Below, piece by piece: positions 11,025 through 51,064 of a DNA stretch of 64,000 bases. The DNA lies in NCBI GenBank assembly GCA_023129115.1, contig JAGMCR010000002.1:1-64000 (forward strand). Direction: 5' to 3'. Made by a program: the position numbers and the translations under genes. The DNA comes from Candidatus Iainarchaeum sp. GTDB lineage: Archaea > B1Sed10-29 > WALL01. Below the pieces are notes generated by a model, which saw only the letters and a list, made by a program, of their open reading frames with translations, did not search any database and was not told the origin of the DNA. Positions within the stretch are counted from its first letter, which is position 1. Each line of letters opens with the position of its first letter.

Positions 11025-11750
11025 CTATTTAATTAGTCTATACATATATCTAGCCAAAGATTCAAAAATAACGTAATAAACTGTTTTCGGTTTCCCATTT
11101 GTAACTTCATCCAATTTGTTCATGTCATATGGTTCCTCAAAAAACTTTTTGTAGTATTTGTCCTTAGGATTAATTATATAATCTATTTTTTCATTCCAAA
11201 AAAACTTTACTAGGAATATGCCGCTATATTGGATATGAAACATCCTTAAGAAAATGTTGTCCAATAAACTTCCTTTTTCGAAAATAGTCCCAAATACCGG
11301 TTTTGAAACTAAAGATTTATCATAAAATACCAACTTATTATTTATATTCAGAATAACCCACCGGTGATGTTTTCTAGTCGGCCGTAAAAGTTCCCCAAAA
11401 AGCGATGGGCATTCTATATACCCCCTTTTTCCAACGCGCATAATTTCTTCTAAGGCATTTTTAGGGTTTTCAACGTGCTCCAGTACTTGAGATGCAATAA
11501 CGTAATCAAATTCTTTGTCCTTGAAAGGCAATTTTTTGCATACATCGGCCTGATAAAAAGCGCGACCATTAGTGCGTAACGGGCGGTCCCCTCTTTCTTC
11601 ATTGTAATCAGTGTATTTATCACAAAGAACATCAGAACGTGGATTCGGGGAATTTCCCGACCCGATATCAAGGACTGCATCTCTAGGCGATATCTTTAGT
11701 ATATGCTCATAAACTTTTCTCTGCATACTTTGTTTAATTTTGTTAATCAT
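11025..11750 (-). CDS. Class I SAM methyltransferase (Methyltransf_11-like)
   Basis: VLDIGSG and LPFKDKEFDYVIASQVLEHVENP motifs. Confidence 0.9.
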   Translation of the reverse strand: MINKIKQSMQRKVYEHILKISPRDAVLDIGSGNSPNPRSDVLCDKYTDYNEERGDRPLRTNGRAFYQADVCKKLPFKDKEFDYVIASQVLEHVENPKNALEEIMRVGKRGYIECPSLFGELLRPTRKHHRWVILNINNKLVFYDKSLVSKPVFGTIFEKGSLLDNIFLRMFHIQYSGIFLVKFFWNEKIDYIINPKDKYYKKFFEEPYDMNKLDEVTNGKPKTVYYVIFESLARYMYRLIK

Positions 11751-11764
11751 ATTTTTTCTCCAAT

Positions 11765-12865
11765 CTAATAAATCTTTTTTTGGGCTAATGAACCAAGTAA
11801 ATCCTGTATTTCAATAAAATGTTTTTCTGGAGAAGACCTTTTAGCGCGGGACAAGCATTCTTCCGCCATTTTTTTCTGGAGATTATTATCTCTCAGAATT
11901 ATTTTAATCTTTTCGGTTAAATCGGCATAACTTTTTGGATTAACCAAAAACCCAGTCTCCCCATCTTGAACCAGCTCTGCTTGGCCCCCAATGTTAGTTG
12001 TTATAACCGGAGTACCCTGGCTCATGGCTTCTCTTATTGTAAGGGGGGAATTTTCCTCAATGATGCTTGGTAGCACGAATGCATACGCGTTGTAATACTC
12101 TTCCTTAACTCTCTCGGTTGGCAAATTCCCCATTAAGGAAACCTTGCCACCCATATTTTTTGACTTAACCAGTTTGACAAGTGAGTCCATGTTTTTACCT
12201 TCCCCGACAATCTCAAGCCTTGCTCCATTTATCTGTTCAAATGCTTTTATTAAATATTCCACCCCCTTGTTTTTTGTTAGTCTACCAACAAATAATATTG
12301 TTTTCTCGCCTTGGGTTACGCGAGGCTTTTCAGCCGCCGGAAAAAATGAGGGGTTTCTGATAAGCCGTATTCTGTTTTTTGTTATGCCCAATTGCTGTTT
12401 TAGCCATTTTTCAGTTGTTTCCGATGGGGCAAGGAATACATCAACGCATCTCTTAATTATGAACCGATGCAGTAGCGTACGCGGAACAAGAGCCACCCAG
12501 CATAGTTTTTTTAGCGTTATTTTCGGCCAGTCGTATATTGATAAGTTTGCCATTTTGAGGCAGATGGGGATATCTCTTTTATGAATCATTGAAAAGACTT
12601 GAGAAGATATGTTACTTCCGACTGCATGGGCAAAAACCACGTCTGGGGCAAAACCGTCAAGTATCTCATTAATTTCTTTGTTGTGCTTTCTGCTATACAC
12701 ACTCGAAAAAAAATTAAGAAGCCACCCCTTTTCTTTTCCACCGAAGTAAACAACTTCATAGCCCTGTTCTTCAAGCATATTCTTTAGTTTATGGTCATAT
12801 ACTTGAGCACCACCTTTCTCATAATCATAGTCATTGATAATCAAGATTTTCATTTGATTGCTCAC
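11765..12865 (-). CDS. GT4 glycosyltransferase
   Basis: MKILII..GGA, FVGRLTKNKG and ENSPLTIREAMSQGTPVI motifs. Confidence 0.92.
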   Translation of the reverse strand: MSNQMKILIINDYDYEKGGAQVYDHKLKNMLEEQGYEVVYFGGKEKGWLLNFFSSVYSRKHNKEINEILDGFAPDVVFAHAVGSNISSQVFSMIHKRDIPICLKMANLSIYDWPKITLKKLCWVALVPRTLLHRFIIKRCVDVFLAPSETTEKWLKQQLGITKNRIRLIRNPSFFPAAEKPRVTQGEKTILFVGRLTKNKGVEYLIKAFEQINGARLEIVGEGKNMDSLVKLVKSKNMGGKVSLMGNLPTERVKEEYYNAYAFVLPSIIEENSPLTIREAMSQGTPVITTNIGGQAELVQDGETGFLVNPKSYADLTEKIKIILRDNNLQKKMAEECLSRAKRSSPEKHFIEIQDLLGSLAQKKIY

Positions 12866-27183: not shown

Positions 27184-27214
27184 TTCAAACGTGGCCATAA
27201 CAGAAAAAGGGGGG

Positions 27215-27287
27215 TGCGCCGTGGGGGATTTGAACCCCCGTTATTGGCTTGGGAAGCCAAGGTCCTGCCAGGCTAGACTAACGGCGC
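27215..27287 (-). tRNA. tRNA-Gly(CCC)
   Basis: GCGCCGT acceptor stem, TTGGC-TT CCC AA-GCCAA anticodon arm and GGGGG TTCAAAT CCCCC T-arm. Confidence 0.97.
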
Positions 27288-27315
27288 ACTGCGAGCGAAG
27301 CGAGCTTTTTACCCA

Positions 27316-27505: not shown

Positions 27506-28030
27506 GTGGGAATATCAAGCCTGATTTATGACTCGTGGAAAATGGAGTGCCAGTTCCGCAAATACGACGGGATGCTGCCAATGCTCGAGGTAGTCAACCT
27601 CAAGGGCAAAGTCCTCGACGTCGGCATCGGCTCCGCGCTCTTCGAGGAATACCTCCGCGGAAAAGGCATAATCCTCGACGTCGTGGGAATCGACGAGGAC
27701 CCAATCATGCTCAAGACCGCGGCAAAAAAAGGGTACAATGCCGTGGCCGGCAGCGCCGAGCGGCTGCCCTTCGAAGACAACGAGTTCGACTTCGTGGTCT
27801 GCCTCGACACACTCCACGCCACCGAGGCCCGCAGGGCAATCAATGAAATGAAGCGCGTGCTGAAGCCGAGGGGCCACATCCTCCTCTCCAAGTTCTGCAA
27901 CGTCTTCAACAAGGCCCAGGCAATGGAAGAGCTCGAAGAGCTTGCGTACGGCATGCAGCTAATCAGCAAAAAAGTCGTTGGCCGCTCCGACGACGAGCTC
28001 AGTGCCGCCCTCCTCTGCAGAAAGGAATGA
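27506..28030 (+). CDS. Class I SAM methyltransferase
   Basis: VLDVGIGS and AERLPFEDNEFDFV motifs. Confidence 0.88.
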   Translation: MGISSLIYDSWKMECQFRKYDGMLPMLEVVNLKGKVLDVGIGSALFEEYLRGKGIILDVVGIDEDPIMLKTAAKKGYNAVAGSAERLPFEDNEFDFVVCLDTLHATEARRAINEMKRVLKPRGHILLSKFCNVFNKAQAMEELEELAYGMQLISKKVVGRSDDELSAALLCRKE

Positions 28031-40150: not shown

Positions 40151-40154
40151 CGAG

Positions 40155-40239
40155 CGCTAGGGGCAGGATTTGAACCTGCACGGGCCGAAGCCCACCGGCT
40201 CTCAAGGCCGGCGCGTTAACCGGATTCCGCCACCCTAGC
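40155..40239 (-). tRNA. tRNA-Ser(TGA)
   Basis: GCTAGGG acceptor stem, CCGGC-CT TGA GA-GCCGG anticodon arm, long variable arm and G discriminator. Confidence 0.97.
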
Positions 40240-40369
40240 AGCGTCTTGGGGGGAGCGCAGCTCCCCCCGCTACCCTTTCGGGAATCGCAATTCCCTTATT
40301 TCTGGCGATTTCCGAAATAAGGCGATACGAAATCGCCGAAATGGGAAGCACCCCCCCTCAGTAAAACTG
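40240..40369 (-). repeat. Structured element, family B, abutting the tRNA-Ser 5' end
   Basis: The minus strand reads TTTTACTGAGGGGGGGTGCTTCCCA...GCGGGGGGAGCTGCGCTCCCCCCAAGACGCT, with several hairpins. Confidence 0.75.
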
Positions 40370-40383
40370 TATTACTTAAAAAA

Positions 40384-40458
40384 TGGGCCCGGTCGGATTC
40401 GAACCGACGAGCTTCTCCACGTCAAGGAGACGTCCTAACCAGGCTAGACCACGAGCCC
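40384..40458 (-). tRNA. tRNA-Val(GAC)
   Basis: TCTCC-TT GAC GT-GGAGA anticodon arm; GTCGG TTCGAAT CCGAC T-arm. Confidence 0.97.
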
Positions 40459-40500
40459 ATTGCGTCGTATTTCTATCGTTTCTTTATAAAAGTGTTACAG

Positions 40501-40574
40501 TGGACCTGGCGCGATTCGAACGCGCGACTTCCCCCACGCCAAGGGGGTACTCTTCCGGACTGAGCTACAGGCCC
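40501..40574 (-). tRNA. tRNA-Ala(GGC)
   Basis: CCCCC-TT GGC GT-GGGGG anticodon arm; G3:U70 pair. Confidence 0.97.
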
Positions 40575-47232: not shown

Positions 47233-48201
47233 TTGGTTTTGATGCACGCAATCAAGGCAAGGAACGTAGTCAAGGTCTATGACGATCCAAGCGGCCGCGT
47301 AAAAGCACTGGACGGCGTTTCTTTCGAGGTCGACAAAGGCGAAATCTTTGGGCTCTTGGGCCCAAACGGCGCTGGAAAAAGCACGCTCATAAACATGATT
47401 ACCGGGCTTATTTCTTCGACGAGTGGCAACATAAAGATTTTTGGGAAGGACGTGGCCACAGACTGGTACAGTGTCAAGGAAATGACTGGCACGTGCTTCG
47501 GCTTCGCGAGATTCATTTATTTCATGACCGGCCGTGAAAACTTGAGGTTCTTCGGTTACTTGTATGATATGAGTGACCACGAAATTGACAAGCGAATTGA
47601 CGAGCTCGCCCAAACGCTTCGGCTTTCGGAAATCGATTCGCGGGCCGGCACCTATTCCTCCGGGATGACCCAGAAGCTCTCGCTCATGAAAGGCCTCTTG
47701 CACAACCCCAAGCTCTTGCTGGTGGACGAGCTGACGGTTGGGCTCGATGTCGACGCGGCGATGAACGTACGGAATGTCTTCAGGCAGGTCCAGCGCGACG
47801 AGGGCACCACGGTTTTGCTCACCACGCATTACATGCAGGAGGCGAACGACCTTTGCAACCGAATAGCGCTGATAAGCAAGGGCAAGCTATACGCGCTGGA
47901 CACCCCAAAAAAGCTGAAGCGCCTGGCGAGGGACTATGACGTCATCGAAATCACCCTCAAGCAAGCAAAAAAAGCCGAGGCAATTGTGCGGCGGCAGAAG
48001 GGCGTCCTCGACGTCTTCGTCGGCAAGGACAGGCTCGTGGCCAAGGTATCGTCTTCAGAAAAAAGCCTCCAGCCAGTCATTGGCGGGCTGCTGAAAAAAG
48101 GGTTTATGTTCACCAACCTCAAGGTCAGGAAGCCCATGCTGGAAGAAGTCTTCTTGTCACTGACCGGCCAAAGCCTTGGGGGTGAGTGGCACGAATTTTA
48201 A
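47233..48201 (+). CDS. ABC-2 transporter ATP-binding subunit
   Basis: GPNGAGKS, YSSGM, LLVDE and LLTTHYMQEA motifs. Confidence 0.95.
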   Translation: MVLMHAIKARNVVKVYDDPSGRVKALDGVSFEVDKGEIFGLLGPNGAGKSTLINMITGLISSTSGNIKIFGKDVATDWYSVKEMTGTCFGFARFIYFMTGRENLRFFGYLYDMSDHEIDKRIDELAQTLRLSEIDSRAGTYSSGMTQKLSLMKGLLHNPKLLLVDELTVGLDVDAAMNVRNVFRQVQRDEGTTVLLTTHYMQEANDLCNRIALISKGKLYALDTPKKLKRLARDYDVIEITLKQAKKAEAIVRRQKGVLDVFVGKDRLVAKVSSSEKSLQPVIGGLLKKGFMFTNLKVRKPMLEEVFLSLTGQSLGGEWHEF

Positions 48202-48955
48202 TACCGTGAAGGCCTTTGCTTACCGGCTTATCGCCAACTTCTGGAAACAGAAGATGTACATATTCGCCGAGGTATTGTTCTGGCCCCTAATGTTTTTGGT
48301 CGCGTTTGGGCTGTTGATAAAGACGTTTTCGGCCGACCCCACAGTGATTAATTACATTCTCGCGGCGTCAATAACCTGGCGCATAACCACGGTCTTCCAG
48401 CAGTCAGTGAATATGGGGTTCCTCCTTGACTACTGGAACGAGACCATGCGCCAGACCTGGGTCGCGCCGTTCCACCTCAAGGAATACGTAATCGGGAACA
48501 GCATGCTGGGCCTGCTTTCCGGCTCGGTCACGTTCCTGGTGTCGCTGGTCGTGGCGTGGCTGGCGTTTGGGTTCAGCTACCAGCCGCTGTGGCTCTTTGT
48601 GCTTACAATTGTAATAATGGCGGTGTGGGGGTGCGTGATTGGCGTCCTCATTCTTGCGACAACTGTTCGCGTTGGGGAAGGCGCCACACGCCTCGCGTGG
48701 GTCATCACAGACATAATCGTGCTGTTGAGTGGCGTGTTTTACCCAATCACGATGCTGCCCGTGCCAATCCAGTTCGTCAGCCACTTCCTGCCGTCCACGT
48801 TCCTGTTCCAAATGCTGCGCGTGCACTCCTTCAGCCCGGTGCTCATGGCCGGGTCAGCTGTAATGGTGGTGGCCTACCTCGTCCTGGGGATGGCGCTGCT
48901 GAGGTACAGCGTGAACCACGCCAAGAAAGTCGGCAGGCTCGTGAGGTTCTACTGA
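48176..48955 (+). CDS. ABC-2 permease
   Basis: Six TM helices and LSGVFYPITMLP. Confidence 0.9.
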   Translation: MGVSGTNFNTVKAFAYRLIANFWKQKMYIFAEVLFWPLMFLVAFGLLIKTFSADPTVINYILAASITWRITTVFQQSVNMGFLLDYWNETMRQTWVAPFHLKEYVIGNSMLGLLSGSVTFLVSLVVAWLAFGFSYQPLWLFVLTIVIMAVWGCVIGVLILATTVRVGEGATRLAWVITDIIVLLSGVFYPITMLPVPIQFVSHFLPSTFLFQMLRVHSFSPVLMAGSAVMVVAYLVLGMALLRYSVNHAKKVGRLVRFY

Positions 48956-49500
48956 TGAAAAAAACACGCCCCGAGCACCAGCCCGGCTTTGAGTTCCGCC
49001 CCGGGGAATACGAGTCCCCTGGCATGAAGCGAATGCAGGAACAGCTCACGCTCCGGGCAATCGAATTGTTGGGAATCGACTCCGGCCGAGTCATCGACAT
49101 TGGCTGCGGCACCGGCTACTCCACCCAAGTGCTTGCGGACACTGGCTTCGACGTCGTCGGCATCGACCCCAACCAAGAAATGGTCGAGAGGGCCAACGAA
49201 AGAAAACTAGCGTGTTCCGTGGGCTCGTTCGAGGAAATCCCCTTTCCCGACCATTCCTTCGACGCCGCCGTCTCCATTTCCACGCTGCAGTGGGTCGAGG
49301 ACTACCGCGCCGCCGCCAAAGAAGTGAGCCGCGTGCTGAAGTACTCCGCAAAAGCAGTGTTCCAGTTCTACCCCGAGTCAGAAGAAGACGCCATGAAGAC
49401 CGCGAAGGCATTCGCCCGCGAGGGCTTCAAGGCCGAGCTCGCGATAGACAACCCAGACAACCCAAAGAAAAAGAAAGTGTTTCTTGTCCTCGAACGCTAA
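48955..49500 (+). CDS. Bud23/WBSCR22-like SAM methyltransferase
   Basis: RPEH, LTLRAIELL, IDIGCGTG, IPF..SFDAAVSISTLQW, VFQFYPE and IDNPDNPKKKKVFLVL motifs. Confidence 0.8.
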   Translation: MKKTRPEHQPGFEFRPGEYESPGMKRMQEQLTLRAIELLGIDSGRVIDIGCGTGYSTQVLADTGFDVVGIDPNQEMVERANERKLACSVGSFEEIPFPDHSFDAAVSISTLQWVEDYRAAAKEVSRVLKYSAKAVFQFYPESEEDAMKTAKAFAREGFKAELAIDNPDNPKKKKVFLVLER

Positions 49501-49544: not shown

Positions 49545-49961
49545 GTGCGCCTGTACATAGACACCAACGTGCCGATTAGCCTGGTCACTGGCGAGTTCGG
49601 GAAAAACTATGAATTCATGGAAGAGAGAGTTAGAAGATTTCTTTCTGTGTGCGAAGAAGAAAAGCATACACTCATAATCTCTGACTGGATGACGAAAGAG
49701 CTTGAAGGAGTTAAGCCCCATTGTTCTAATTGGATTCAAGACTTTGCTGCTGAAAACATTATTGAATACGTTGAACTTACAAGAGAAGACAGCCTAAAGG
49801 CCAAAACGATATCTAATGCAAAAGGCATCCATTACTCCGACGCTCGGCATGTTCAGCTAGCGTTAAAGTCAAAGGCCGACGCAATAATAACGTGGGACAC
49901 CAAAGACTTCCAAAAAGTGAGTGACCTAATAACCGTGATGACGCCCGAACAGTTTATATGA
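49545..49961 (+). CDS. PIN-domain (VapC-like) RNase
   Basis: YIDTNV, DARHVQLA and IITWDTKDF motifs. Confidence 0.9.
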   Translation: MRLYIDTNVPISLVTGEFGKNYEFMEERVRRFLSVCEEEKHTLIISDWMTKELEGVKPHCSNWIQDFAAENIIEYVELTREDSLKAKTISNAKGIHYSDARHVQLALKSKADAIITWDTKDFQKVSDLITVMTPEQFI

Positions 49962-50241
49962 AGCCCTTTTCCCGGTCGAACTCCTCAGCAAGTTTGTCCT
50001 TGTAGTCCTTGTCAAACATCGCCCTCTCCAAGTCCTCGAGAGTAACACCCTCTTTCTTGAGCCTATCAGCCCACTTCTTTGCTACTGCATCCCATCTCCT
50101 CATACGCAGCTGAATCGCTTTTTCCCTCATTGCGTCACGCACTGCCTCGGAAACATTGGAGTACAGTTTACTCTGCTCTACTAATTCTTCAAACTCCTTC
50201 TTGAAAACAGGGTCAAGGCGGATTGTATAGCTCTGCTGCAT
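49954..50241 (-). CDS. RHH/CopG family protein, convergent with the PIN gene
   Basis: YTIRLD...LYSNVSEAVRDAMR. Confidence 0.82.
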   Translation of the reverse strand: MQQSYTIRLDPVFKKEFEELVEQSKLYSNVSEAVRDAMREKAIQLRMRRWDAVAKKWADRLKKEGVTLEDLERAMFDKDYKDKLAEEFDREKGFI

Positions 50242-50296
50242 GTATTTACATTGTACATACAACTGGTATTTAAATCATGCTGCTAAAAACCACCCC

Positions 50297-51064
50297 ATGC
50301 TCCGCAAAAACCGATTGATATGGGAAAACCTCTACGAATTAAGCGAGGCCGAGGTAGTCCTGCTTGGAGTGCCGTTCGACGGCACGTGCACCGGCCTGCC
50401 AGGCGCGCGCCTTGCCCCGTCACGCATCCGCGAGGACTTCGACTTGTTCGTCGCAGGCCACGAAAAGGGCATCGGGGACCTCGGCGACGTGAAGCTCTAT
50501 GACGCCGGCGACGTGGACGTGGTGCACGGCTCGCCCGAAGACACTTTTGACCGAGTCGTGGAAGCGGTGCGCGAAATCCGCGACGAGACAAAAGCCCCAA
50601 TTATTACACTCGGCGGAGACCATTCTATCACTCTCCCCATCGTTTCCGCGCTCGCCGAGCTCGAAAAGTTCGGCTACGTGTGCTACGACGCGCACCTAGA
50701 CCTGCTTGATGACTTCAACGGCTACCCCAATAGCCACACGTGCGTGAACCGCCGCGTGATGGAAGTCGTCAAGGACGTCGAAATCGTGGGCGCGCGCGCC
50801 GGCAGCAAGGAAGAGTGGGCAGTAGCCAAGAAGCTGAGGCCAGTGAAGGGCAAGTGCTACGTAAGCATTGACGTGGACGTGCTCTCCGCAGTGCCCACGG
50901 GCACGCCGGTCCCGAGCGGCATGCAATTCCGCGACCTATGGACAAAAATAAGCAAGCGAAAAATTGTCGCTGCCGACATAATGGAGTACAACCCGTTGGT
51001 TGGCCACTCCACTGTCCCAGCCGAGCTCTTGAAGCGCCTCATCCTCAAGACGGGTAGAACATGA
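50297..51064 (+). CDS. speB: Agmatinase (ureohydrolase family)
   Basis: GVPFDGT, LGGDHSIT, DAHLDL and SIDVDVL motifs. Confidence 0.88.
   Translation: MLRKNRLIWENLYELSEAEVVLLGVPFDGTCTGLPGARLAPSRIREDFDLFVAGHEKGIGDLGDVKLYDAGDVDVVHGSPEDTFDRVVEAVREIRDETKAPIITLGGDHSITLPIVSALAELEKFGYVCYDAHLDLLDDFNGYPNSHTCVNRRVMEVVKDVEIVGARAGSKEEWAVAKKLRPVKGKCYVSIDVDVLSAVPTGTPVPSGMQFRDLWTKISKRKIVAADIMEYNPLVGHSTVPAELLKRLILKTGRT

Follow-up and report, generated by a model that had tools for sequence, protein, structure and literature searches.

Introduction

Is Bud23, the methyltransferase that acts with Trm112 on the small-subunit rRNA, confined to the eukaryotes, or is a member of the same family also encoded by archaea? 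The Bud23-Trm112 pair has generally been treated as a eukaryote-specific step of small-subunit maturation. In the sections of two papers that bear on this point (PMC5372719, 2017; PMC6144793, 2018), archaeal genomes are said to lack any protein significantly homologous to Bud23, and this absence is said to fit the lack of m7G at the G1575-equivalent position in archaea. The question is raised anew by a locus in a 64,000-nucleotide stretch (hereafter the window) of a contig of Candidatus Iainarchaeum sp., where the product of 48955-49500 (+), a 181-aa class I SAM methyltransferase that we call P0001, resembles Bud23 well beyond the features common to all such enzymes. The literature searched contained no report of an archaeal Bud23 homologue; the supplement of PMC8481954 has BUD23 among the factors analysed, and a table in it may bear on novelty. 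Since the automatic annotation of IMG already labels one short homologue (at least one case) as 18S rRNA G1575 methyltransferase, the databases can be said to hint at an archaeal Bud23; the literature searched does not.

A short gene concealed in a longer reading frame

A mechanical search for open reading frames reports at this place a 314-aa frame with a GTG start (48556-49500), which we reject as spurious: its 5' part (48556..48954, +) is non-coding in that frame and overlaps, in another frame, the gene of an ABC-2 permease (48176-48955, +; Pfam PF01061, ABC2_membrane). We place the start of the Bud23-like gene (48955..49500, +; 181 codons and a TAA stop, by translation) at ATG 48955 because three observations converge there. 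The ATG (48955-48957) overlaps the TGA stop of the upstream permease (48953-48955) in an ATGA arrangement; a Shine-Dalgarno-like GAGGT (48943-48947), read from the sequence, lies 7 nt 5' of it; and the common N-terminus of 12 close homologues, M-x-K-x-[RK]-P-E, aligns at its Met. At a same-genus locus (L001), an in-frame stop is found 45 nt 5' of the homologous ATG. The preliminary description had already proposed that the gene was hidden inside a longer spurious frame, and the permease overlap and the start evidence at 48955 bear this out.

The gene is real and under purifying selection (dN/dS 0.19 against the 84%-identical homologue at L001). The permease gene is preceded by that of an ABC transporter ATPase (47233-48201, +; PF00005), and since all of these genes lie on the same strand and the permease overlaps the start of the Bud23-like gene, the transporter genes and the Bud23-like gene are probably co-transcribed. 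An ABC ATPase is also found 5' of the Bud23-like gene at two same-genus loci (L001 and L002); in the other lineages compared, no such arrangement of ABC genes occurs beside it. The neighbours within the window (the ABC transporter, a PIN-domain gene and an arginase) include none with a link to the ribosome. The contig measures 142.8 kb and belongs to a genome of 1.25 Mb that is 88.6% complete, in which a search found no assembled 16S rRNA gene. The stretch is contained in three DNA runs of a single study, labelled a cold seep metagenome; no RNA runs containing it are listed.

Kinship with Bud23 in sequence

P0001 is a member of the Bud23 methyltransferase-domain family. When it was compared by phmmer with the PDB chains, which here stood in for a eukaryotic proteome, four Bud23/WBSCR22 sequences ranked first among 73 matches (E 3.2e-19 to 5.7e-17, query residues 22-180), and the best generic enzyme (4.8e-15) was aligned over the core alone (44-135). 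A family profile of 13 sequences enlarged the difference: Bud23 was then matched over its full length with 7.1e-34 and 120 bits, the best generic enzyme with 1.4e-19 and 74 bits. On P0001 the Bud23 matches extend from residues 16-22 to 179-180 and the generic ones from about 43 to 135. In the opposite direction, a profile built from 31 Bud23 sequences of eukaryotes, run against the 19,136 six-frame ORFs of the genome, placed the Bud23-like gene at the top (1.8e-38, 132.6 bits), some 96 bits ahead of the runner-up (4.1e-9, 36.2 bits). The reciprocal comparison that the preliminary description had recommended is thus consistent in both directions, and the outcome it had named as fatal to its view, best matches and a tree position among generic enzymes of the BioC or Tam type, did not occur; Bud23 comes out best by sequence and by fold. 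The identity of P0001 to eukaryotic Bud23 is 33-38%.

The general-purpose families add little to this picture. Methyltransf_11 covers residues 47-134 (5.3e-24), and the 17 Pfam matches at E<=0.01 include neither RsmG nor TrmB, whose Pfam accessions we take to be PF02527 and PF02390. The NCBIfam models all remain under their cut-offs (in bits, BioC 62.3 against 184.95, MenG/UbiE 49.6 against 158.35, Tam 42.6 against 320, DVU_1556 73 against 155).

Motifs and parts of the protein

The preliminary description had quoted six motifs, and all of them occur, in the same order, in the translation of 48955-49500: RPEH (residues 5-8), QEQLTLRAIELL (28-39), IDIGCGTG (47-54), IPFPDHSFDAAVSISTLQW (95-113), AVFQFYPES (134-142) and GFKAELAIDNPDNPKKKKVFLVL (157-179). 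The yeast counterparts that it had given can be followed, in collinear order, where HMMER aligns P0001 with yeast Bud23 (PDB chain 4qtt_B), an alignment that spans residues 22-180 with an E-value of 3.2e-19, far beyond chance. The likeness does extend, as had been maintained, to family-specific parts outside the SAM motifs: the R-P-E motif, the Q-x-x-[ML]-[TS]-x-R-A-x-E-L-L helix, S-I-S-x-[LI]-Q-W, Q-F-Y-P and the C-terminal hairpin G-F...D-x-P...K-K-K-x-[FY]-L-V-L are all present and collinear with Bud23.

Conservation was assessed on 99 DPANN, Asgard and eukaryotic sequences. The N-terminal family-specific element (48967..49071, +), delimited from alignments and the model, comprises the RPE motif (residues 5-8) and a helix (22-39 in the AlphaFold model) that in the sequence alignment matches the N-terminal helix of Bud23 and contains Q28, the only invariant column of the alignment. 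The SAM-binding core (49093..49173, +) consists of motif I, IDIGCGTG, and of GIDPN (residues 69-73), the acidic end of strand 2 with its acidic residue D71; D48, G50, C51, G52, G54, G69 and D71 are conserved in at least 90% of the sequences. The same level is reached by F102, S107, S109, Q112 and W113 in the segment IPF...FDAAVSISTLQW (residues 95-113; 49237..49293, +), which holds strand 4 and the S-I-S-x-L-Q-W motif common to Bud23, and by Q137, Y139 and P140 in AVFQFYPES (49354..49380, +), with the Q-F-Y-P motif likewise common to Bud23. The last element, outside the generic SAM motifs and specific to the family, is the C-terminal beta hairpin GF..(x)..D.P..PKKKK.FLVL (residues 157-179; 49423..49491, +), whose strands in the model are E159-165 and E174-180, which by sequence is aligned to the C-terminal strands of Bud23, and in which F158 is also conserved in at least 90% of the sequences.

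P0001 ends two residues after ...FLVL, and PF12589 (WBS_methylT, the basic C-terminal extension) is absent from its Pfam matches, so that the eukaryotic extension is indeed missing, as first described; on this account the word "minimal" seems apt. A home-made HMM of the extension matches 38 of 150 library representatives, all of them long forms.

Predicted fold

The AlphaFold model of P0001 (pLDDT 95, pTM 0.90) has the order of strands and helices of the class I fold, and this predicted fold resembles Bud23 more closely than it does the other methyltransferases of class I. In Foldseek, ranks 1-8 are all occupied by Bud23/WBSCR22 (TMq 0.82-0.89, rmsd about 2 Å), and generic enzymes follow below (TMq 0.64-0.71, rmsd 4-5 Å). 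With VIA-align the model is superposed on Bud23 with Z 23.3-25.9 and an rmsd of 1.4-1.8 Å over 161-178 residues, all others having a Z of at most 20.4; the alignment from which the model was built included eukaryotic Bud23 sequences, which may pull it towards the Bud23 fold.

Distribution and phylogeny

Among the best 80 of 106 loci, relatives of the gene belong to DPANN lineages and to a part of Asgard, and they prove rare, being carried by 31 of 401 archaeal genomes; within the same 80 loci, P0001 is 45-88% identical to its nearest DPANN members and 28-37% identical to the Asgard members. In the phylum of the host the gene is carried by 17 of 31 genomes. At 60 Asgard loci it stands head-to-head with the gene of ribosomal protein eS25, a protein of the small-subunit head that, in the part of PMC7531240 concerned with it, is said to contact the initiator tRNA.

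Each of the four trees sets the family apart from the generic methyltransferases, with moderate support and with an outgroup of only 8-12 weak matches. The split received 97 with FastTree (103 rows), 87/82 and 86/82 in careful searches and 64 in a quick mixture search; IQ-TREE was run on 67 rows. The eukaryotic sequences form one clade (100/99), which never includes archaeal ones. The phylogeny called for at the outset thus recovers the family apart from the generic enzymes with moderate support; it does not resolve a direct descent of eukaryotic Bud23 from the Asgard form. This tempers the earlier suggestion that the gene bears on the origin of eukaryotic ribosome biogenesis, the host being a DPANN archaeon of the Nanobdellati and no close kin of the eukaryotes.

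The search for a Trm112 partner

In eukaryotes the stability and the activity of Bud23 require Trm112, according to the relevant part of a review, and a search for this partner had been advised. It came back empty. In the host genome, PF03966 has no match at E<=0.001, where at 88.6% completeness a small gene may have been missed, and a custom archaeal Trm112 HMM combined with a motif scan returned only unrelated zinc-ribbon proteins; across the phylum's 31 genomes no small ORF gave a Trm112 match, although 17 of them carry the Bud23-like gene. Because the search was empty both in the genome and throughout the phylum, P0001 would not be part of a Bud23-Trm112 holoenzyme. As eukaryotic Bud23 needs Trm112, an enzyme without the partner would be a real departure, and a drift to another substrate is possible.

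Several weak candidates were discarded on inspection. At E<=10, PF03966 gives three matches in the host genome, of which two are read as something other than Trm112: one (L081) is antisense to an intein-containing ATPase gene, and the other (L082) is a zinc ribbon within a protein of 188 aa, Csl4-like by reading of its sequence. The third lies at C12:9631-9753 (E 0.099). With the custom HMM the best matches (E 0.0064 and 0.013) fell on zinc-ribbon proteins of other kinds, and weak matches in G002 and in two relatives, G012 and G021, were, again by sequence reading, zinc ribbons of TFB/TFIIB-like proteins. Similar weak matches were seen in G015, G017 and G499. The 8 Asgard-type genomes that were searched (G005, G047 and five others are named) all encode a Trm112 with a central insertion. 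One DPANN genome, G040, has both a Bud23-like gene and Trm112. In Bud23 it is the edge of strand 3 that binds Trm112.

A proposed function and its rivals

We consider it rather probable that P0001 is a minimal, Trm112-independent 16S rRNA m7G methyltransferase; the substrate, the position, the N7 chemistry, the timing and the independence are all things that we infer. On the best reading, the protein is predicted to be catalytically competent. It would bind SAM in its Rossmann core and grip a flipped-out guanine with the family-specific S-I-S-x-L-Q-W motif on one side and Q-F-Y-P on the other. The methyl group would pass to the N7 of this guanine, the one in 16S rRNA that corresponds to G1575 of yeast 18S rRNA; we take it to be G1338 of E. 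coli, on the ridge of the head beside the P-site tRNA. Homology alone points to this particular guanine. The reaction would presumably take place on a late pre-30S particle, and the bare 181-aa domain would work with neither the basic C-terminal extension nor the Trm112 activator.

The alternative that deserves most attention, unlikely as we judge it, is that a Bud23-fold enzyme was retargeted in DPANN to another guanine or nucleotide, another site in 16S or 23S rRNA, a tRNA, or a substrate other than RNA. The C-terminal extension and Trm112, which link the Bud23 of eukaryotes with the pre-40S pathway, are both missing here, and the subclade of the window has a shortened N-terminal region and a shortened loop after L-Q-W compared with the eukaryotic and Asgard forms. 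Moreover, the pertinent sections of PMC5372719 and PMC6144793 state that the archaeal 16S rRNAs so far analysed, from organisms that may lack the gene, show no m7G at the position equivalent to G1575. Against such a shift stand the presumed purine pocket (S-I-S-x-L-Q-W, Q-F-Y-P and Q28), conserved from P0001 through Asgard to the eukaryotes, the close superposition of the model on Bud23, and the linkage of the Asgard orthologues to the gene of a small-subunit ribosomal protein. An improbable reading, which overlaps the rRNA methyltransferase reading rather than excluding it, is that P0001 is mainly an assembly factor whose binding to the pre-small-subunit outweighs the methyl mark, with catalysis perhaps dispensable or lost. 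A review, in its portion on Bud23, does describe G1575 methylation as non-essential for the cellular function of the enzyme and, in humans, the protein and not its activity as required for biogenesis; yet the SAM-binding and pocket motifs of P0001 are all intact and under purifying selection, and the retention of a catalytic domain, stripped of the eukaryotic interaction modules, in a 1.25-Mb genome argues for catalysis.

That P0001 might be a generic small-molecule methyltransferase (UbiE/MenG-, BioC- or Tam-like), its likeness to Bud23 being the shared Rossmann core plus chance, is largely refuted and very improbable. It is what the annotations would suggest: the Pfam families are generic only, NCBIfam lists DVU_1556, BioC and UbiE first, IMG calls relatives UbiE or cyclopropane-fatty-acid-synthase-like, and the nearest ESM Atlas clusters bear generic names. 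But no NCBIfam model reaches its cut-off, the first three falling far below, and the generic enzymes match only a core that Bud23 exceeds to near full length, with 46 bits more under the family profile; the 96-bit margin of the reverse search and the clear gap in fold similarity (Foldseek, VIA-align) speak the same way. Had the gene been acquired recently from a eukaryote, or were the bin contaminated with eukaryotic DNA, this would account for the fact that the closest characterised relatives are eukaryotic. Either is scarcely credible for a gene that shares an ATGA overlap with an archaeal-type operon partner on a contig of this length, is carried by same-genus genomes and by 17 of the 31 in the phylum, is excluded from the eukaryotic clade and is just 33-38% identical to eukaryotic sequences.

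Comparison with known systems and wider meaning

Yeast Bud23 and human BUD23, or WBSCR22 (18S m7G1575 and m7G1639), are collinear with P0001 over the methyltransferase domain, with 30-34% identity in structural alignments, and share with it the N-terminal helix, motif I, S-I-S-x-L-Q-W, Q-F-Y-P and the C-terminal K-rich hairpin. They differ in length (275-281 aa against 181), in the PF12589 extension, in their longer N-terminal segment and loop after L-Q-W, and in their setting, since neither the genome nor the phylum of P0001 yielded a Trm112 gene and its host offers no nucleus, U3 or Dhr1 context. The Bud23-like proteins of Asgard and other DPANN archaea are members of this same family, and all lack the eukaryotic extension; they are annotated as class I SAM-dependent methyltransferase, as UbiE and once as 18S rRNA (guanine1575-N7)-methyltransferase. 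The Asgard members, of about 210 aa, have a full eukaryote-like N-terminal region and mostly a TTG start, stand beside eS25, and occur in genomes that, in the 8 searched, encode Trm112, which was not found in the phylum of P0001. Haloferax volcanii Hvo_0019 (PDB 6f5z), a Trm112-dependent archaeal class I SAM methyltransferase, is similar in size and fold; 6f5z_A is nonetheless a much weaker match (Z 19.0 and rmsd 2.9 Å in structure, E 1.3e-9 in sequence), and the terminal elements specific to Bud23 are missing from it. By experiment it is bound to Trm112, unlike P0001, for which no Trm112 was found. RsmG (GidB), responsible for bacterial 16S m7G527, is likewise a stand-alone SAM-dependent m7G enzyme of small-subunit rRNA, of a different family and acting at a different rRNA position according to the passages on it in a review.

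The existence of a DPANN/Asgard family contradicts the published absence of Bud23 homologues in archaea. It also makes the claimed lack of archaeal m7G testable, as the family predicts which archaea should carry the mark, and it adds one more component of ribosome biogenesis common to Asgard archaea and eukaryotes. Only tentatively, and with rather less than even confidence, we entertain the idea that Bud23 did not originate with the eukaryotes: a 16S m7G enzyme of the P-site ridge, bare and independent of Trm112, might have pre-existed in archaea and been inherited by eukaryotes from their Asgard-related host, with the extension and the obligate Trm112 being added later. On that account it would have survived in DPANN and in part of Asgard, there beside eS25 and alongside a eukaryote-like Trm112 with an insertion. 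If this were true, these uncultivated archaea would carry an unrecognised m7G in their 16S rRNA, and it would be wrong to say, as has been published, that archaea are without Bud23 and the modification. On the practical side, Bud23 is hard to produce without Trm112, and a partner-less enzyme of 181 aa would be a tool for biochemistry. The commonest taxa in the nearest ESM Atlas clusters are Hadarchaeota, Bathyarchaeota, Promethearchaeota and Nanobdellota, and the family may thus reach further among the archaea.

The Gene and Its Surroundings

Translation of window positions 48955-49500 (+) yields a protein of 181 aa followed by a stop codon, and in it all six motifs quoted in the preliminary description of this Bud23-like methyltransferase are found in the order quoted. 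Their yeast counterparts, quoted there as well, are legible in a HMMER alignment to yeast Bud23 (PDB chain 4qtt_B) that is collinear over query residues 22-180. The gene had also been said to be masked by a longer open reading frame, and such a frame (48556-49500, GTG start, 314 aa) is indeed present in the mechanical ORF list. It was rejected as a gene: its first 400 bases overlap, in another frame, the gene of an ABC-2 permease (48176-48955 (+), assigned by Pfam), and it is the permease gene that has the Pfam match. The true start is the ATG at 48955, since this codon overlaps the permease stop codon (ATGA), lies 7 nt downstream of a GAGGT read from the sequence, and occupies the position at which 12 close homologues begin. 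A dN/dS of 0.19 against the homologue at the same-genus locus L001 (84% identity) demonstrates that the gene is real and under purifying selection.

Upstream on the same strand, the permease gene is preceded by that of an ABC ATPase. Downstream, a gene with a PIN domain (49545-49961 (+)) and a 102-aa ORF (49954-50262 (-)) separate the Bud23-like gene from an arginase-family gene (50240-51064). The ABC ATPase and arginase-family genes recur only at the two loci of the same genus; at L001 the homologue of the arginase-family gene comes straight after the Bud23-like gene, and the stretch 49545-50262 of the window looks like an inserted toxin-antitoxin-type module. These neighbors are silent on function. 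Elsewhere in the window there are three clustered tRNA genes (Ser-TGA, Val-GAC and Ala-GGC; 40154-40574 (-)) and a separate tRNA-Gly-CCC (27212-27288 (-)); the whole 1.25-Mb assembly contains 38 tRNA genes, and a search of it for a 16S rRNA gene found none.

Assignment to the Bud23 Family

Curated family libraries identify the protein only as a generic class I methyltransferase: 17 generic Pfam families match it (the best being Methyltransf_11, 5.3e-24) with PF12589, the basic C-terminal extension of Bud23, absent from the matches, and none of the 51 NCBIfam models listed comes near its own cut-off. Solved structures give a sharper answer. When the single sequence was searched against the PDB, the top 4 of 73 matches were yeast Bud23 and human WBSCR22/BUD23, over the full length (3.2e-19 to 5.7e-17), and the top generic enzyme (3l8d, 4.8e-15) matched core residues 44-135 only. 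When the single sequence was replaced by a profile (A2) made from its 13 nearest family members, Bud23 was matched at 7.1e-34 (120 bits, positions 16-179) and the top generic enzyme at 1.4e-19 (74 bits), in the core only. Conversely, when the 19,136 six-frame ORFs of the whole genome were searched with a profile built on 31 eukaryotic Bud23 sequences, the window gene ranked first (1.8e-38, 132.6 bits) and the runner-up scored 4.1e-9 (36 bits). The resemblance to Bud23 originally noticed in the sequence thus holds in both directions. Two generic Methyltransf_11-type genes of the same genome (window 27584-27874 (+) and contig C18, 26698-27021 (-)) match the query in its SAM core only (E about 1e-11) and are not Bud23-like.

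Among 99 aligned sequences Q28 is invariant, and conservation is 90% or higher at motif I, D71, S107, S109, Q112, W113, Q137, Y139, P140 and F158, so that the SAM-binding site and the presumed purine pocket are intact. The AlphaFold2 model (pLDDT 95, pTM 0.90) was built from this 99-sequence alignment, which includes eukaryotic Bud23 sequences, and the fold comparison should be read accordingly. In a Foldseek search of the PDB the first eight ranks all went to chains of Bud23/WBSCR22 (rmsd about 2 Å, TMq 0.82-0.89), with generic enzymes below them (rmsd 4-5 Å, TMq 0.64-0.71); with VIA-align, Bud23 gave Z scores of 23.3-25.9 (rmsd 1.4-1.8 Å), and all others gave 20.4 or less.

Distribution of the Family

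A word-indexed search returned 12 close relatives of 179-191 aa (45-88% identity), then three eukaryotic Bud23 proteins bearing PF12589 (35-37% identity) and then generic enzymes. Run with HMMER over the full set of 1.84 billion representatives, the A2 profile matched 4,831 proteins at E<=1e-10, of which 57 reached E<=1e-30. The eukaryotic C-terminal extension was recognized by a home-made HMM in 38 of the best 150; for the other 112 the nearest labeled sequence was from DPANN in 80 cases (including a few long multi-domain generic enzymes), eukaryotic in 23 and Asgard in 9. A scan of one genome per GTDB species, biased because it was seeded by two peptide patterns, gave 106 loci with a relative. 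As labeled in their records, the best 80 of these comprise 57 from Asgard archaea (Promethearchaeota/-ia 44, Hermod 6, Hod 5, Odin 2), 13 from DPANN, a kingdom named Nanobdellati in the NCBI taxonomy (Micrarchaeota 7, Woesearchaeota 2, unclassified Nanobdellati 2, Iainarchaeota 1, Aenigmatarchaeota 1), and 10 from archaea without a group label. Unbiased counts come from searches of whole genomes: a match was present in 17 of the 31 genomes of the window's own phylum (E<=1e-20), in 31 of 401 archaeal genomes (A2, E<=1e-24), in 14 of the 370 outside that phylum (same profile and threshold), and in 20 of 121 genomes of the phylum of the Asgard chromosome G005 (E<=1e-25). In archaea, then, the family genuinely exists but is rare, and its distribution is patchy.

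Some genomes (G351, G405 and G501) carry two Bud23-like genes, which in G405 form a tandem pair (contig C20, 4218-4769 and 4886-5437). Two library proteins, P0030 and P0034 (412 and 382 aa), each match the profile twice, perhaps because they are fusions or because gene calls were merged. In another, P0014 (210 aa, from an 897-bp contig), the first ~55 residues are near-identical to the window family and the remainder is another methyltransferase; it is probably an assembly chimera and was left out of A2.

Gene Neighborhoods of the Relatives

The Asgard Bud23-like loci have a strongly conserved neighborhood. In 60 of them (L015, L017-L079) a gene for ribosomal protein eS25 (PF03297; L015, 5547-5846 (-)) lies divergently, head-to-head, upstream of the Bud23-like gene, and a Gtr1/RagA-like GTPase (n=61) and a ThiS/Urm1-like gene (n=53) are also found upstream. 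Directly downstream is a gene for a 1,439-aa protein (L015, 6877-11196 (+); n=44), followed by one for a 367-aa protein (11196-12299 (+); n=36), both proteins having no Pfam match at E<=1e-5. These counts are not independent, since the loci are related. About 52 of 63 Asgard copies start, by a crude start-picking rule, at a conserved TTG, few having an ATG available, and the conserved N-terminus that follows reads x-N/S-D/N-x-Y-x-F-N-V-K-R-K-R-P-E-E. In two distant genomes, the Aenigmatarchaeota-like G040 (L101, 204-728 (-)) and the 1.42-Mb single-contig G047 (L102, 1189-1716 (-)), the Bud23-like gene is followed by a convergent gene for a multi-pass membrane protein of about 175 aa; the two membrane proteins are homologous and have similar N-termini.

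Phylogeny

Trees were built from 103 rows: the window protein with two members of its family, 17 proteins from DPANN or from unlabeled loci, 15 Asgard-type sequences (what a 62% identity filter left of roughly 63), 22 eukaryotic-type sequences, 34 unlabeled representatives, and an outgroup of 12 generic methyltransferases from the word-indexed search. A 67-row subset omitted 8 eukaryotic, 24 unlabeled and 4 long-branch outgroup rows. Every tree recovered the eukaryotic sequences as one clade (support 99-100), the Asgard sequences as another (100), and placed the window protein, together with L001 and L002, inside a clade of DPANN sequences. The separation of the family from the generic outgroup, expected in the preliminary description, was recovered in all four trees, with moderate support (64-97); the position of the eukaryotes varied. 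FastTree on 103 rows supported the family at 97 and placed the eukaryotes beside Asgard at 90. On 67 rows, the corresponding values were 87/82 and 69/75 in the careful LG+G4 analysis, and 86/82 and 43/25 in the careful LG+C20 analysis, in which the bootstrap had not fully settled. The quick LG+C20 tree supported the family at 64 and did not recover the Asgard grouping, the eukaryotes being sister to all archaeal sequences (support 48). The AU test did not reject archaeal monophyly (p 0.231). Given this variable support, descent of eukaryotic Bud23 from an Asgard form is compatible with the trees, and nothing stronger.

The Missing Extension and the Trm112 Partner

As had been noticed at the outset, the window protein lacks the basic extension: it ends directly after the methyltransferase domain. 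The search for the activator Trm112, which the same description had proposed, found none in this genome or its phylum. In the organism's own genome PF03966, the Trm112 family, gives no match at E<=0.001, two weak matches proved on inspection not to be Trm112, and an HMM from eight archaeal Trm112 proteins with a motif scan retrieved other zinc-ribbon proteins only. Across the phylum's 31 genomes PF03966 yields just four weak matches, all in frames of 306-540 aa; two of these were inspected, and each is the zinc ribbon of a TFB-like protein. With the same search, unambiguous small Trm112 genes turn up in many other archaea, and also in 7 of 14 control genomes.

In a TFB-like protein of the same-order relative G012 (L104, 616-2235 (+)), some 230 residues at the N-terminus form a tail consisting almost entirely of Lys-rich repeats. 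A 929-aa protein of the organism's own genome (L081, 241-3030 (-); contig C3, about 102.6-105.4 kb), judging by its sequence, appears to be a FlaI/VirB11-like secretion ATPase interrupted by an intein.

Outside the phylum, Trm112 was sought in 12 of the 14 genomes bearing a Bud23-like gene: it is clear in eight (G040, G047, G190, G232, G294, G351, G370, G514), weakly matched in G499, and without a match in G241, G282 and G405. Seven of the eight are Asgard-type, G047 among them, and a further Asgard genome not counted here, G005 (reached via locus L032), also encodes it. The Trm112 proteins of G005 and G047 (L084, 1075-1698 (+), and L103, 373-924 (-)) have 183-207 aa with a long central insertion between the zinc-knuckle halves, a layout that they share with eukaryotic Trm112 as outlined in a 2017 review (PMC5372719); the forms of other archaea in the sample have 50-60 aa. 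Eukaryotic Bud23 needs Trm112 for stability and activity, according to a review, so that the window's lineage, in whose phylum none was found, appears to use a Bud23-type enzyme without its eukaryotic activator.

Possible Function

We infer that the window protein would act as a stand-alone SAM-dependent enzyme, most likely methylating, in late pre-30S particles, N7 of the guanine in 16S rRNA that corresponds to G1575 of yeast. The main rival is that a Bud23-fold enzyme has been retargeted. A ribosomal role for the family fits the Asgard pairing with eS25, a protein of the small-subunit head that is said, in PMC7531240, to contact initiator tRNA in eukaryotes.

Two specialist papers, PMC5372719 (2017) and PMC6144793 (2018), state that archaea have no Bud23 homologue. 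Full-text searches found nothing combining Bud23 with Asgard or with "eukaryotic signature proteins", and none of the papers listed for Lokiarchaeota, Heimdallarchaeota, DPANN, Micrarchaeota or Woesearchaeota mentions Bud23. It is absent from the main text of three papers on archaeal ribosome biogenesis (PMC8339473, PMC8481954, PMC8997704), and a supplement of PMC8481954 has BUD23 among the factors traced. Automatic annotation of the homologues is mixed: 6 of 10 clusters are named, one of them (by IMG) "18S rRNA (guanine1575-N7)-methyltransferase", the remaining names being UbiE, cyclopropane-fatty-acid-synthase-like or plain SAM-dependent methyltransferase.
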